A stretch of 64,000 bases of DNA, from positions 145,638,001-145,702,000 of the forward strand of contig NC_091984.1 of NCBI RefSeq assembly GCF_044704955.1, written 5' to 3'. This stretch comes from Pristiophorus japonicus (taxonomy: Eukaryota). Each line of letters starts with the position of its first letter. Positions within the stretch are counted from its first letter, which is position 1. The notes below the pieces were generated by a model that was not told where the DNA came from, did not search any database, and worked only from the letters and a program-made list of their open reading frames with translations. Shown here piece after piece: positions 45,454-52,712 of this stretch. The position numbers and the translations under genes are program-made.

Positions 45454-45996
45454 TGTGGAAGAACTTTAGTTCACGATATAGGAAGGGGTTAAATTTCTCT
45501 CTTCCTTTTAGTAAGTTTAATTCTGTGCTGAGACTGCAGAATCCTGCAAGGCCAGAAAATACTTGATGTCTCTTCTTTGTTAGAAAAGAACAGATAACAT
45601 GAAAGCTGTACATCTGGTATTTGTATATGTTAAGATACCCCCATTGCCTGGACAAACTGATTTCTCTGATAAGAGGGGCTTTTAGTGATGATCTTGCTGA
45701 CCCTCGAAAAGATTGAATAATGACGTGACAAGATACTGTTGGGCTGTGTAAACTGACCTTTGTGCCCTGTTTAGAATTGGTAATGTTCCTGAATAATGTA
45801 GGTGTCAATTGTAGAGATAAAATTCCTTTTTTTCTGTATAAAGATGGAACAAGTTTCTATAGAATTTCAGAGTATTGCCTTGATAAGGACCAAGCATCTC
45901 TCCGAGATATCTCGCCTGTACATATTAAAAGAATCTCTTGAAGCAAGACTCTGAAATCTCCGCTTGAGTTACTTTAACTTAGAAATTTCCTCGACA
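45454..45996 (+). repeat. ERV-B 5' LTR
   Basis: TG..CA; TATAAA 45837, ATTAAA 45924; one A/G difference from the 3' LTR seen by eye (tgAtaagg vs tgGtaagg). Confidence 0.97.
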
Positions 45997-46001
45997 GTTT
46001 C

Positions 46002-46019
46002 TGGCGTAGTCTGCAGGAC
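46002..46019 (+). promoter_or_regulatory. ERV-B primer-binding site, tRNA-Ser(AGA/TGA)-type
   Basis: TGGCGTAGTCTGCAGGAC vs TGGCGTAGTCGGCAGGAT. Confidence 0.8.
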
Positions 46020-46348
46020 CTCTGATAACGAGATCCCAAACGAACAAGTTTAAAAGTAAAAATTGGCTTAAAAGAAAAAGAGGAATTTTAAAAGGATTTT
46101 CCCAGCTTAAGGGGGAAAGTGCCTAGGCTGTCCTAGAAAAGGGGGCAAGCCGCCGAGATCCCGGAAGGGTGAGGCATAGGGTAGCTACCGTAAGAAGCTA
46201 AAATAACAAGAAAGCTAAAGGAGACCCGAGCTGAGCCGAAAAGAGACACCGGTGAGCGCTTTGTAAATACTGTGTGTGTATATATTTTTGTGGGCGTGTC
46301 TTAACCTCTCGTTTCAGGAAACACCGCGAGAAACTGCACCCGGAGAGA

Positions 46349-47786
46349 ATGGGAAACAGCTCTAGTCGAGCAGGATGCTTGCGTCCAGTTCCTAGAAAAG
46401 GGAAGAAAACCGACCCTCCAACTAAAAGAATGAGTATGCAGCGTAAAACTGAAAAAAGGATTCGTAAGGTAGTAAAGCAACGAGAGAAGGTAGGAGATCC
46501 AATTGTGCCACCCGGCTCGCCGGCGGACACTGTAATTAAAGAAACAGGAGATGACCGATACGCGGTAACATTTAGTAGCGATTTATATGGTTGGTCTGAT
46601 GGGGACTGGCCATATGGAGGAAGTTTTAAATTGTCTTTAATCGAAGAATGGAGGAAAATAACTAAGGAAGGGGGAGGAGACCCTACTTGGGACAAAGATT
46701 ATATGGATAAATGTTTTATTAAATGGCTAGAGGTTGCAAAAAGACATCAGCCTCCGAAAGTAAAAATATCAGAGAATAAATCAGGAGAGAAAGAAAGGGG
46801 GAGCCAATCTGAGAGCTGGTATGGTCCTAAGGTCACAAACAACCCCAGCTCAGGCAGAAGCCGACTCTACCCTCCTCCTCCAAAATCCCCGAGTAATGAT
46901 AGGAACCACAGCGGTTTTAAAACCCTGGTCTCCGGGAGAGGCCAGAGATATGATCTCTGCAGCCCCAAACCCGGTAAAGAAACCTGTTGCATTTCATAAC
47001 TGGCTTGAGCAGACCTGTACAATTTATAATCCGCTACCAGGGGATGTTAAACTATTATTACAAGCAGCGTACGGATCTTCCTGGCAGGGAGTAAAAGATA
47101 TGTTCCATATCCCGCCCGGAGAAGAAGGGGATTGGAGAGCTAATAATGATTTGCTAAATGAAGGAAACGAATCTTTAACACACTGGCTACAGAATAGAGG
47201 ACGGAATGCAATTCTACAAGGGGCTAGACAACATGGGGATATAGGGGAGGTTACTCGCTGTTTGCAGAAAGCGGAAGAATCAATGATAGATTTCGCAGCC
47301 AGGTGGAAAAATAGCTGGGAGGAGTATGCAGGAATACCCTTAGATACGAATGAACCTTTAGCAGTACAAACACTGCTGAACTGCATGTTACCACAGCATG
47401 CAAAGACCTACAAAATTAAAGTTTTAGATTGGCAAGGAAAAACCTGGAAAGAGACAGTCACTGTCTTGGCAAACATGGACAGGGAGGGATTGTTCAATTA
47501 CGTAAGTAAAACCAAAGCAACAGGTCAATATTACCAGCAGAGAGGCGGAGGGCAGGCGCAGAATCGAGGGGGATTTAGGGGTGGAGGAAGAGGAAGAGGA
47601 CAGTGGTCACAGCGAGATCGCTCTCAAGATGAGTGTAGAAATTGTGGAAGAATAGGGCATTGGGCTCGCGACTGTAGATGCCCGCCCAAACAGAATAGAG
47701 GGTCGCAAGGGAACTTTTCCGAACCTCCACCTCCACCAGCCCCTCAATTTTCCTTTTCTAACCCCAATCCGTATCAATCAGCATAG
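46349..47786 (+). pseudogene. gag: ERV-B gag, with one frameshift near 46880
   Basis: MGNSSS myristoylation motif, LYPPPP, CA (KPWSPGE; CLQKAEESMIDFAARW), RGG-rich stretch, CRNCGRIGHWARDC knuckle; ends in TAG. Confidence 0.9.
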
Positions 47787-48866
47787 GGATGCCCCAGAGG
47801 CATAACGGTACAGGCAGCGACTCTTCGCTTATCAACGGACATAGAAGAAAATCCCTTAGCAATACTAAAAGTAGGAAACACTTGTGTAAAGTTCCTGGTG
47901 GATACCGGCGCCACTATGTCCTCTGTACCGCCCTCTGTGGGATTACCCGTAAGCAACACCACTGTTTTAAGCATGGGTGTGGCCGGCGTCCCCTTGAAAG
48001 ATTTTTTATCCGAACCTACTAAATTGACAATTGAAGGACAACAAGTTAATGACGAAACCCTGATAGTCTCTAAGACAACGCCTCTCCCTCTATTAGGAAG
48101 ACAGACTTTGTGCAAACTAGGAGCCACAATATATTGCACAAAGGGAGGGATGTTTATGGAGATCCCTCCAAATAACATTCATCAGTTCTTTAATGGGATA
48201 GAAAGAGAGAAAGAGGAAAAGAATGAAGAAAGTGCTGCCCTTTATAGTTGGCAACTGAGTGGCAACTTCTACTCCTCCCTGATAAAAGAGGCAGTGGAAA
48301 ACTTAAAGATTAAAATTGACCCTAATATTAAAGAGTTATTGTATATCATCTTAACAAGCTTTGAGGCAGTTCAGCTTCACTGTACAGCCTGGTATACTCG
48401 ACACAGGGCTGAAGACTATCAGCGCTTTGTGCAACCGTTCTTAAATAAAAACGAAGTAATAGAAGCTACTCCCCACATTTATTTCGGATCTGAAGGGTTG
48501 GGGGTGGCCGTGGAGCTAACACCGTTACAACAAAAACGATTTAAAGAAGAAAATACGACACCCCATCTGACATTGGCTGTAAAGCCCCCAGCAAAACCTA
48601 AAGACATGGGCGGGATGATCTTAGACATAGAAGAGAAAAGACAGCGACCAGGTTATCAACCATGGGCGATGATAGAACTGCAGGATATACGGCTAGAATT
48701 TATCACCCGTGACAGAGGAATTCTCCACTGGGAGAGAAAAGGGCACGATGCTACGTTTGAAAAACAGCAACCCCCCGGACAAACTAGCCCTAACATACCA
48801 ATGGCACTGAGTCAAGTGTCCCCCGAACTCTGGGCTAAACATAAAAACCATGTTGGACAAGTCTAA
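47787..48866 (+). CDS. ERV-B protease plus 2H-phosphoesterase-like domain, in frame with gag across the amber codon; ends at the RT deletion
   Basis: FLVDTGAT..LLGRQTL protease; LHCTA (His 48378) and PHLTL (His 48564); then RT N-terminus PELWAKHKNHVG and a stop. Confidence 0.85.
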   Translation, partial: GCPRGITVQAATLRLSTDIEENPLAILKVGNTCVKFLVDTGATMSSVPPSVGLPVSNTTVLSMGVAGVPLKDFLSEPTKLTIEGQQVNDETLIVSKTTPLPLLGRQTLCKLGATIYCTKGGMFMEIPPNNIHQFFNGIEREKEEKNEESAALYSWQLSGNFYSSLIKEAVENLKIKIDPNIKELLYIILTSFEAVQLHCTAWYTRHRAEDYQRFVQPFLNKNEVIEATPHIYFGSEGLGVAVELTPLQQKRFKEENTTPHLTLAVKPPAKPKDMGGMILDIEEKRQRPGYQPWAMIELQDIRLEFITRDRGILHWERKGHDATFEKQQPPGQTSPNIPMALSQVSPELWAKHKNHVGQV

Positions 48867-50973
48867 TGTATGTGAATGAAAAAGAAGGATTCGCAACAGC
48901 AGTGTTAACCCAAGAACATGGTGGGGGAAATAGACCAGTTGCTTATTATTCGGTAATGCTCCCCCCAGTAGTACGAGGAATGCCTGCTTGTCTGCGTGCT
49001 GTAGCCGCTACTGCGGTCATGGTGTAAAAATCAGTACCAATTGTATTGGACTATCCGTGCACTGTTATCACCGCGCATGCGGTGCTGTTATTGTTGAATT
49101 CCGCAGCAACTCAGCATTTCACAGCATCCCGAAGGACAGGCTACGAGGTGCTGCTGTTGTCACACCCTAACTACACTTTTCGCCGTGCACCTGCAGTAAA
49201 CCCTGCTGTTTTTGTTCCTACCAGCTCCACTAGAGAAATAGAGGACCCAGACCAGCACGACTGTCTGTCAACAGTGGAGATGGCTACCATGCCTAGACCA
49301 GATTTGCTTACGGAACCAATGGACAATCCCGATCTCATTCTTTATACAGATGGGTCGTCTCACAGACCATCAGACAATTTGCTCCTGGCAGGCTATGCTA
49401 TTGTGAACCCATATGAAATTGTTGAGGCATTTGCCTTGCCCCCCGGAACCTCGGCACAGGCAGCTGAATTGTTCGCCCTAACTAGAGCATGTATATTAGC
49501 TAAAAAATCAATCTTCTAATATATATACCGATTCAAGATATGCATTTGGTGTAGTCCATGATTTTGGACAACTATGGAAAAACAGAGGCTTCATCACCTC
49601 TGGCGGGAAGCATATTAAGCACTCACAATTAGTGCTTAACCTGATAGATGCCATTCAATTGCCAAAAAGGGTTGCTGTTATTAAATGCGCAGCCCACACA
49701 ACTGGTGAAGATGAAGTATCATTAGGAAATAGGAGGGCCGACGAGGCGGCCCGACGAGCCGCTTTGGAACAGACGTGCTGCCTACAGGCAGCCTCAGTCT
49801 CCCCTCTGCCAACACTGAGCGCCCAACAACTTGAAATAGCACAGCAACAAGTTACAGTGCAGGAAAGAAAAACATGGGAGAAACAAGGATGTTTTTTTAA
49901 AAAATAATATCTGGACCCATCCTGACGGACGAACTGTATGTCCCAGGTCTTTGTTTTTGCCCTTGTCTCGCCTAGCTCATGGTCAGGCTCACATGGGCAA
50001 AGGAGGGATGATACATGCTATCAATGCGCCATGGTATGCACCAGGAATAACAGTAATAATTGAGAAAATTGCTAAAACCTGCCAAATTTGCCAACAAAAC
50101 AATAGAGGAAAGACGCCTGCAGAATATGACCATCTACCCCAACCAAGCATGCCCTTTGAAAATTTGCAAATTGATTTTGTCCACATGCCTCCAGTATTAG
50201 GCTTTAAGTATCTATTAGTAATAGTAGATATGTTTACAAGGTGGGTAGAGGCATATGCAACAAGGAAGGATGATGCCCGAACAGTAGTGAAGATCCTATT
50301 TAAAGAAATAGTGCCAAGATATGGGATACCTATGGGAATCAACAGTGACAGAGGAACACATTTTACAGGAAAAATAGTGCAGAATCTAGCCGAAGCGCTA
50401 GGTTTCCAGTGGAAATTGCACATACCGTATCAACCTCAGTCCTCAGGCATGGTGGAAAGAGTCAATGGAGTGATAAAGTCCACCCTTACTAAAGTATGTC
50501 AAGAAACAGGACTAAAATGGCCAGATGCCCTTCCATTGGTACTATATACCATAAGAAACCAAAAGAACCGAAATACTGGTTTGACACCCCATGAAGCCTT
50601 ATTAGGAAGGCCAATGCCTACTGGTGTAAAACCGCCACTAGGAGCAGAAAAGGTAGCATTAATTTGGAATGACGAAAAGTCGCTAAAATATGCTCAGGCC
50701 ATGTGTGAAATAGCGAGAAGCCTGCATGAGCGAATAAAACAGACCCAAGTACCTCCGTCAGAGGGAAACATGCACCCTTTCAGGCCGGGAGAGCAAGTAT
50801 TAGTGAAAACTCTAAACAAGGAATCTTTTTCTCCTAGGTGGAAGGGACCATATCAGATAATCCTCACAAGAACCGCCCTGAAACTGGAAAAACATCCAAA
50901 TTGGATACACGCCACCCGATGTAAATACTACCTTCCAGACGAAACACAGCAAGAAGAAGAAATACCGAGCTAG
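48863..50973 (+). pseudogene. pol: ERV-B pol remainder: RT connection, RNase H, integrase (integrase ORF 49951-50973 open)
   Basis: YVNEKEGFATAVLTQEHG..RPVAYYS; LYTDGSS, SAQAAEL, YTDSRY, KCAAH; HGQAH..CQIC, IDFV/SDRG/MVER, WKGPY. Confidence 0.93.
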
Positions 50974-51068
50974 GGCGGACACACCCCGAAAAGAACTGTA
51001 CTCATCCCCTTTTGTTTCTACCGAGCCAGGCTGGACTAAGAGCATAATACCCCGAAGTATCAAGCTAG

Positions 51069-51269
51069 ATGTCAGAACTTGCCTGTATACCAATTTGGGT
51101 CTTTATCTTGTGGATCACTGTTACTATTGTACTAGTAAGCTATTATTTTAACGAATTGGTTCAGGAGCATTATAGAAGAAAACAAAGGGAGGAAGATGAG
51201 GAAGGACTCCTGGCAAAACTATCAGGGGACACTGGGTATGTTAATCCTTCTGGCAGTGGGAAGAGTTAA
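51069..51269 (+). CDS. ERV-B 66-aa accessory membrane protein with Vpu-like architecture
   Basis: ATG ORF between pol and env, overlapping the env start; N-terminal TM IPIWVFILWITVTIVLVSYYF; EHYRRKQR; DEEGLL; DTGYVNPS. Confidence 0.65.
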   Translation: MSELACIPIWVFILWITVTIVLVSYYFNELVQEHYRRKQREEDEEGLLAKLSGDTGYVNPSGSGKS

Positions 51270-52090
51270 AACAGAAGAAAGGTTTATAAAAGAAGGTAAA
51301 ATATGGAAAGGAGAAATGGCCTGGGGCACGATTGACAAAGCAGGACAGCAGGACACTTATGTATGTTCGGAAAAAAGAGGATTGCAAAGTGGGGAACTTC
51401 ACAGTAAGGTGTGAGGCCTGCGGAATGACATGCCTGACCAGCAAGGAAATAGCTGAGAGCCAAGAAACTAATGGCACGTTTTGTGACCCCGAAGAAGATT
51501 GTCATTTTAAAATAGAAAACAGAGGATGGGTAAAGTGCATGAACCGTACAAAAATACTACATGGGGGAACCTATATTAAACAGTGGACACATAATAAAAA
51601 TAGGCATTCCCCCAGAGATCCGGGCCATTTAAAACAGATATTGACCACCTGCATATCGGTAGTAAGATCCCCAGGTATAGTAAATTTAACCATACAAATC
51701 CTATATCCGCTAAGGGAGAGGGATGGTTGCAACACGACCAGTGTTGGAGTCACACTGGACCGATCCTTGAGAAAAAAGCGAGACGTGCTGGGAACTGTAT
51801 TAGGTGGGGTAGGAGTAGGAATGGGAGCCTTGAACACAATAGATATAGAGACCCTGCAAAACAAAATCCAGGTTGTAGGAGGACTAATAGGAGAAAGTAT
51901 AGAGTTGAGAAACGCGTGGGATGAAGGGCTACAGCAACTACAGGTATCTGGCTACATAACAGACAAGTAATGAACCTAGTAGAAAAAATAGAGCAGAAAA
52001 ATGTGATCGTGAAAGGAAGGTTAAACAGAATAGAGGGACAGTTAGATGACTATAATGAAAAAGAATGTTTAGAGATGAGACCTTACCCCG
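51196..52090 (+). pseudogene. env: ERV-B env, frameshifted with TM truncated
   Basis: Signal peptide GMLILLAVG; Cys-rich short SU with NxT/S sites; furin site RKKR; fusion peptide DVLGTVLGGVGVGMGALN; heptad; no membrane anchor before the LTR. Confidence 0.85.
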
Positions 52091-52169
52091 AGGGGTATGA
52101 GCCTCCCTTTTCTTTCTAAGAAGGAAAGCATGTTGATCATTAAAGATAAAAGATCAACAAGGAGGGAGT

Positions 52170-52712
52170 TGTGGAAGAACTTTAGTTCACGATATAGGAA
52201 GGGGTTAAATTTCTCTCTTCCTTTTAGTAAGTTTAATTCTGTGCTGAGACTGCAGAATCCTGCAAGGCCAGAAAATACTTGATGTCTCTTCTTTGTTAGA
52301 AAAGAACAGATAACATGAAAGCTGTACATCTGGTATTTGTATATGTTAAGATACCCCCATTGCCTGGACAAACTGATTTCTCTGATAAGAGGGGCTTTTA
52401 GTGATGATCTTGCTGACCCTCGAAAAGATTGAATAATGACGTGACAAGATACTGTTGGGCTGTGTAAACTGACCTTTGTGCCCTGTTTAGAATTGGTAAT
52501 GTTCCTGAATAATGTAGGTGTCAATTGTAGAGATAAAATTCCTTTTTTTCTGTATAAAGATGGAACAAGTTTCTATAGAATTTCAGAGTATTGCCTTGGT
52601 AAGGACCAAGCATCTCTCCGAGATATCTCGCCTGTACATATTAAAAGAATCTCTTGAAGCAAGACTCTGAAATCTCCGCTTGAGTTACTTTAACTTAGAA
52701 ATTTCCTCGACA
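52170..52712 (+). repeat. ERV-B 3' LTR
   Basis: Direct repeat of 45454-45996. Confidence 0.97.

Follow-up and report, generated by a model that had tools for sequence, protein, structure and literature searches.

Evidence for an accessory gene of Vpu-like layout between pol and env in a shark endogenous retrovirus

Introduction

Small membrane-anchored antagonists encoded on the env mRNA are regarded as a lentiviral trait. Among small accessory genes in comparable positions, EIAV S2 (about 65 aa) is located at the env 5' end, and ORF1 of snakehead retrovirus (SnRV) lies between pol and env. HIV-1 Vpu uses an ExxxLV motif with AP-1/AP-2 (PMC4810257), S2 uses ExxxLL against SERINC5 (10.1101/065078; PMC10436108), and an 'adaptors of adaptors' model has been put forward (10.1101/065078). 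Complex fish retroviruses also carry accessory ORFs, such as the 52-aa SnRV ORF1 (PMC12193657), SnRV being a clade separate from epsilon-like elements (PMC4977317).

In this study, we analyzed a stretch of 64,000 nucleotides from the sawshark Pristiophorus japonicus, hereafter named the window, which contains a provirus. An initial annotation of the window, made from its letters, had pointed to a Vpu-like gene between pol and env of this provirus, named ORF X here.

Results

A young provirus assigned to the epsilon-like class I ERVs

Features of the provirus are collected in Table 1. The identity of its LTRs, together with the target-site duplication, indicates a very young insertion. The stretch downstream of the 5' LTR resembles what we take to be a tRNA-Ser primer binding site. 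In pol, about 320 codons are absent at 48865/48866, the expected place of the RT core, and env has a frameshift near 51371-51399 and has lost about 350 codons, membrane anchor included. Gag has a single zinc knuckle, and gag and pro-pol share one frame. The nearest named relatives of the integrase are from Pristiophorus japonicus (94% and 81%), the first of which fits a shark host, then from tunas (55%), turtle, newt and WEHV-1 (38%). In the integrase tree the provirus joins the tuna group (support 94/96), and IMG/VR searched with the integrase gave no relative. Judged from integrase, zinc knuckle and gag/pro-pol frame, on which the assignment relies as the RT core is missing, the provirus is an epsilon-like class I ERV.

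The env of this family has its furin site at about residue 220, followed by a long post-cleavage ectodomain; among database proteins, one from Heterodontus francisci (40%) is its sole relative. An older family of the genome (loci L131-L159) carries the same unusual env with an integrase about 30% identical, presumably class III-like, which suggests an env exchange between distant retroviral lineages. Outside 45454-52712, the window is full of dispersed repeat fragments with LINE-type RT-like translations, which we take to be CR1/L2-like. Between protease and RT, two H-x-T motifs (HCTA and HLTL, 48378-48575) form a pair that is presumably 2H-phosphoesterase-like. A 2',3'-cyclic nucleotide phosphodiesterase ORF is mentioned for fish epsilon-like elements (PMC4977317).

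Table 1. Coordinates of proviral features in the window
Feature	Position	Strand	Remarks
Provirus	45454-52712	+	flanked by 5-bp target-site duplication CATGG
5' LTR (TG...CA), 543 bp	45454..45996	+	
Primer-binding-site-like stretch	46002..46019	+	from sequence
Candidate leader splice donor CCG/GTGAGC, exon end 46251	46249..46257	+	from sequence
Splice donor inside gag AAG/GTAGGA, exon end 46489	46487..46495	+	three integrated copies have it joined to 50838
Integrase part of pol (rve and MLVIN_C domains)	49993..50973	+	stop codon 50971-50973
Splice acceptor, pyrimidine tract and TAG/G, exon start 50838	50822..50838	+	inside integrase C-terminus
Acceptor candidate of the initial annotation: branch-point-like, pyrimidine tract and AG	51001..51029	+	from sequence
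ORF X, 66 aa in the window's subfamily	51069..51269	+	conserved core codons 1-51 = 51069-51221
Predicted single transmembrane (TM) helix, residues 5-23	51081..51137	+	hydropathy, helix model
L30-[VI]31-Q-E-x-Y-R36 block, IQ-like motif	51156..51176	+	
Acidic dileucine D43-x-x-G-L-L-x-K-L51	51195..51221	+	overlaps env codons 1-9
env, broken in window copy	51196..52120	+	RKKR furin site and fusion-peptide-like stretch still present
15-aa tail with DTGYVNPS, subfamilies A and B only	51222..51266	+	env signal-peptide DNA, other frame
3' LTR	52170..52712	+	99.8% identity with 5' LTR

ORF X in the window copy

As initially described, an intact ORF lies between the integrase stop and env and overlaps the latter out of frame: it starts 96 nt past the pol stop (50973), and 74 nt are shared with env. 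The N-terminal TM helix proposed for its product is borne out by prediction, the top 19-residue hydropathy window scoring 2.59 from residue 5 (2.3-2.7 across five subfamilies), and the AlphaFold model consisting of one helix, residues 6-55, with a mean pLDDT of 76. When 50974-51270 was base-shuffled 5000 times, an ATG ORF of at least 51 aa arose 421 times, and an ATG ORF with a TM-like window never did.

DEEGLL (residues 43-48) does match [DE]xxxLL, as the initial annotation had it, and L51, which ends the dileucine block, is the natural C-terminus in subfamilies C1, C2, C3 and D. On its own the motif is weak, since about 9-13% of shuffled versions of residues 25-51 contain [DE]xxxL[LI]. The further suggestion that DTGYVNPS is a beta-TrCP degron was rejected: the sequence is not DSGxxS, and it sits in a tail found in two of the six subfamilies and absent from C1, C2, C3 and D. 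DSGxxS is missing from all five subfamily proteins examined.

X is kept at a fixed position before env in six subfamilies

A DNA search, in which 40 of 412 candidates were scored, returned 30 loci. Five of them have an open X, and the other 25 carry a TAG at codon 15; 29 have a broken env, which in the remaining one runs past the locus end. A protein search (150 of 635 candidates scored) gave 86 matches of full length at 97% or above; 54 of these are stop-free and 32 have a single TAG, at codon 15. A similar search with a divergent copy had 150 of 643 candidates scored, 8 of which contain stops. Both protein searches revealed further subfamilies, from which 40 stretches were fetched. Counted on 122 distinct loci out of 130, X is open in 36/61 copies of A, 0/3 of B, 7/8 of C1, 28/31 of C2, 4/4 of C3 and 15/15 of D; these counts are biased toward open copies, as matches were score-ranked, and A includes a few copies with altered C-termini.

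The codon-15 stop is one shared change, mostly in copies whose env is broken too. The initial annotation had named an ORF broken in relatives as the outcome that would speak against a gene; this is what we found in the copies stopped at codon 15, but X is conserved across six subfamilies. The stop shows that X is dispensable for copying within the genome, not that X never was a gene. The linker function discussed below would explain why copies spreading within the genome with a broken env could lose it.

Six subfamilies, whose X proteins are as little as about 60% identical, place X at an identical offset to env, and the env ATG comes 127 nt after the X ATG in all undeleted subfamilies. No indel occurs between subfamilies across 42 X codons, next to a gap-ridden spacer: the 60 nt before X align at 45-58% with 3-7 gap openings (A or B versus the others). 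The protein has 51 aa and ends with L-L-E-K-L-stop in C1, C2, C3 and D; A and B extend it by 15 codons. Its anatomy consists of a short acidic N-terminus, the TM helix, an L-x-Q-E-x-Y-R helix and a terminal DxxxLLxKL. Among 47 distinct open copies, L30, Q32, E33, Y35 and R36 are invariant, T17 (47/47) and T19 (44/47) lie within the TM helix, and 42 have juxtamembrane cysteines; a C-C-x-C/F cluster follows the TM helix in subfamilies C and D, and is absent from the window copy. L47 and L48 are each found in 46/47, and D43 in 47/47, but D43 was a selection filter.

A long Env signal peptide was considered for X and rejected. X is out of frame with env in undeleted copies, as the initial annotation had claimed, and Env has its own hydrophobic N-terminus. 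Two in-frame X-env fusions, L061 and L062, are internal deletions, with ORFs of 238 and 332 aa.

In one region (G000:C32:4.78-5.91 Mb), nine subfamily-D matches follow each other on one contig at a regular spacing of about 110-220 kb, which suggests a tandem segmental duplication including a provirus.

Purifying selection in the X frame

Selection tests were restricted to codons 2-41, outside the env overlap. Among natural copies, pairwise dN/dS of X was 0.16-0.59 in 14 of the 15 subfamily pairs, which are not independent of one another. The exception is the A-B pair (0.78), subfamily B being broken. The other two frames gave values of 0.45-2.15, and the X frame was the lowest in 13/15 pairs. 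A codon model was then applied to the 40 distinct open sequences that remained of 130 loci once subfamily B and any copy with a stop or frameshift had been dropped, with a tree built on the same 120 nt. The maximum likelihood omega was 0.46 in the X frame (versus 1, LRT 12.1, p=5e-4), compared to non-significant values of 1.37 and 1.41 in the other frames (p=0.21 and 0.15).

Between A and C/D, dS of X (0.56-1.81) is like that of integrase (0.83-1.05), so X is not merely a conserved RNA element. Taken with the dN/dS values and the unalignable upstream DNA, this indicates that selection acts on the protein, more weakly than on integrase (0.03-0.05). Inside the overlap, six representative copies show five changes at L47, L48, K50 and L51. 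None of them alters X, and three alter Env (S>F, N>S, Y>C); the by-hand probability of this pattern is about 0.03 if all are transitions, a modest support. Since the env ATG constrains D43, and the env start context E42, the acidic residue is not separately judgeable.

Could X be a chance or relic ORF, without protein function? Many copies are broken, no homologue was found, and the codon test drew on open copies and 40 codons only. Such a reading nevertheless seems very improbable to us in the face of frame-specific purifying selection, of 42 indel-free codons beside a gap-ridden spacer, of a conserved ATG and stop, and of shuffles that never yield a TM ORF. We conclude that ORF X is very probably a real accessory gene.

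Start codons and splice sites

In the window copy, the X start is weak (ctagATGt), the env start is strong (aagATGa, with A at -3) and no ATG lies in between, which agrees with the initial claim. Start codons were counted in 126 loci, including a few fetched twice. In 122, a pyrimidine precedes the X ATG at -3 and a T follows it at +4, though upstream DNA varies by subfamily, the env ATG has A at -3 in all 126, and no out-of-frame ATG separates the two starts in 119. This conserved weak/strong pair would fit leaky scanning.

Three integrated copies (L161, L163, the same as L054, and L164, the same as L060), out of four junction-search matches, have 46489 joined exactly to 50838, and look like reverse-transcribed spliced RNAs. 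As they sit on both X alleles, at least two junction events are likely; template switching is also possible at this junction, given a 4-nt overlap there. All six subfamilies have the 50838 acceptor, and its use with a gag donor recalls, we presume, the alternative-donor transcript of MLV. The gag-donor RNA puts a 76-codon Gag-N fusion ORF ahead of X, so that the working mRNA more likely comes from the leader donor, 46251; the one ATG-stop lying between 50838 and X in the window copy is weak. For the junction of leader donor to 50838, the search of genomic copies gave one match, a point variant of the acceptor, and for the leader donor joined to any other G-initial exon it gave none; this is a weak negative, as such RNAs may lack the packaging signal.

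The acceptor that had been proposed near 51029 fared less well: its pyrimidine tract and AG exist, but two genomic searches gave no junction copy. In the three subfamily-D copies inspected (L115, L119, L127), which do keep X, this AG is missing or shifted. Contig joints 46487->50836 and 49386->50837 come from three runs of unrecorded kind in one study, and genomic copies may be their source. The leader also contains, just before the gag ATG, a 66-nt mini-intron look-alike (46252-46317, GTGAGC ... pyrimidines-CAG), of which no spliced genomic copy was found.

The fixed coupling to the env start and the conserved ATG pair could both mean that X acts on behalf of its own Env, either as a partner in trafficking or by setting Env dose as an upstream ORF, without a host target. 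This is unlikely in our opinion. A second genomic family with the same env type and a distant integrase (about 30% identity) shows no X, and so this Env type does not need it. In that family, whose env is about 50% identical to a Heterodontus francisci protein, a search with the X profile drew a blank in 29 loci (best E 1.3), a C-type copy making up the 30th, and env directly follows pol in the rows displayed. From these loci, X is seen to travel with the pol lineage, not with the env type. As for a pure translational attenuator, selection at the amino-acid level speaks against it.

Homologue searches and other readings of the helix

A word-indexed search for X homologues with a 3-sequence alignment gave seven candidates, none of which was scored. 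Two matches from a full HMMER search of 1.84 billion representatives were discarded, being tandem-repeat proteins whose weak repeats sum. With nine X members, Pfam returned sub-cut-off TM-type matches only (WBP-1 in 2/9, best E=0.009). Literature searches, which missed most subscription journals and supplements, gave no prior description of X, and the available parts of PMC4977317, PMC8672886, PMC4422223 and PMC1224870 describe no such gene for shark ERVs. X is very probably a real accessory gene, and apparently an undescribed one.

The nearest named ESM Atlas clusters include coronavirus E (0.80), influenza B NB and M2 (0.78), all below 0.9 and taken as leads only. X could accordingly be a viroporin of this type, an oligomer altering compartment pH or membrane permeability at assembly or release, and the polar T17 and T19 of its TM helix, as well as its juxtamembrane cysteines, would agree with this. 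However, shuffled proteins reach those Atlas scores a third of the time, and the host family SMIM18 gets the same score. No viroporin of Pfam or PDB matches X, and the selection on LLxKL would be left unexplained. We rate this possibility as low.

Among PDB entries, the IQ peptide of CaV1.2 comes closest to the X profile (E=0.15, over positions 25-50). The helix might then mimic the IQ motif of an L-type calcium channel, making X a membrane-anchored protein that recruits or sequesters calmodulin, a role compatible with that of an adaptor. An IQ-like core [FILV]Qxxx[RK] (as defined in PMC12828991) is found in 47/47 distinct open copies, with R/K ten residues further on in 41/47. Four of 7 host loci are CaV1-type IQ exons, with which X agrees at 4-8 of the 17 residues from 25 to 41. 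Moreover, the TM-proximal region of Vpu binds Ca-calmodulin (PMC12828991). The E value, though, is not significant and arose after many searches, a single X sequence gives no match as a query, X has no Pfam IQ match, and the host-exon shuffle test relied on a partner picked afterwards. The core itself appears in 4-8% of tail shuffles. The canonical G is absent (position 37, 0/47), so that the full [FILV]Qxxx[RK]Gxxx[RK]xx[FILVWY] does not match; the phenylalanine positions of the channel are missing in X, and the window's own subfamily is without the second basic residue. All in all, calmodulin binding appears quite unlikely. Capture of a host calcium-channel exon is unsupported, third codon positions agreeing with those of the host exons in 1-7 of 17 cases, about what chance would give.

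Discussion

The reading that we tentatively favour, though we would not count on it, is that ORF X is a convergent linker of the Vpu/Nef/S2 type, bridging clathrin adaptors and a membrane protein of the host. X, a predicted single-pass membrane protein of 51-66 aa, would clear a host surface or antiviral protein from the cell surface. One mRNA, spliced from the leader donor to 50838, would serve both X and Env through leaky scanning. The protein would be N-out/C-in, its juxtamembrane cysteines in subfamilies C and D may be palmitoylated, cargo binding would run through the TM helix, and DxxxLL would bind AP-1/AP-2. Its predicted anatomy best matches the 'adaptor of adaptors' class.

Gene conservation, protein-frame selection, the fixed position before env, the ATG pair and the use of the 50838 acceptor are the basis for the linker reading. 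Against it, the function is carried by motif and layout, as X has no homologue in any library searched. AlphaFold places the dileucine within one continuous helix, whereas adaptor-bound dileucines are extended. X is also broken in 32 of the 86 near-identical copies and in all three distinct B copies, and the only splice found starts at a donor inside gag. A bolder version, in which a shark retrovirus independently invented Vpu, an IQ helix (through calmodulin) and a terminal dileucine together stripping an antiviral membrane protein, is a long shot; if true, it exposes a restriction-factor arms race in cartilaginous fish.

A homologue-free X with the layout of Vpu, selected in a recently active shark retrovirus lineage, would amount to convergence. 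The 51-aa X, combined with a surface-proteome readout, is a potential probe for the antiviral membrane proteins of cartilaginous fish, which are undescribed in the literature that we found. More generally, an ERV annotation that stops at gag, pol and env overlooks micro-ORFs under selection, and integrated spliced copies can locate splice sites without RNA data.

Compared to known systems, the provirus is like the epsilon-like class I ERVs known from fish and sharks (WEHV/WDSV) in its MLVIN_C integrase, single zinc knuckle and gag/pro-pol frame (PMC4422223, PMC4977317). A membrane ORF between pol and env is not described for them in the available parts of these two papers, and the env of the family differs by its early furin site, without CX6CC and without Pfam or PDB match. 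SnRV ORF1, a 52-residue accessory ORF of a complex fish retrovirus (PMC12193657), was compared by description only, and is the main risk to the novelty of X: if the two are homologous, X would belong to an already known gene of fish viruses (GenBank U26458.1, as cited in PMC12193657). EIAV S2 is, like X, a small accessory protein, and its ExxxLL is predicted to recruit AP-2 (10.1101/065078, PMC10436108); it is anchored by Gly2 myristoylation, whereas X has a TM helix and Ser2 (47/47), and no homology is shown between the two.

The likeness to Vpu put forward in the initial annotation holds for the layout (TM helix, acidic dileucine, weak ATG, out-of-frame env overlap), but neither for homology nor for the degron. 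No Pfam Vpu family was found at E<=1, nor for nine X members at E<=0.5, and no Vpu chain in PDB at E<=10; without a sequence homologue, X is not a member of the Vpu family. Like HIV-1/SIV Vpu, X has a short luminal N-terminus, one TM helix and a cytosolic tail with an acidic dileucine, its topology being predicted, and both precede and overlap env in another frame (PMC4810257). X may also share the env mRNA, as Vpu does. The tail of X is about 28 aa in the core, versus 56 in Vpu, its dileucine is C-terminal and without an accompanying DSGxxS, and most X subfamilies have a cysteine cluster. Finally, unlike Vpu, X is encoded by a non-lentiviral virus, whose integrase falls among class I ERV proteins of shark and tuna.
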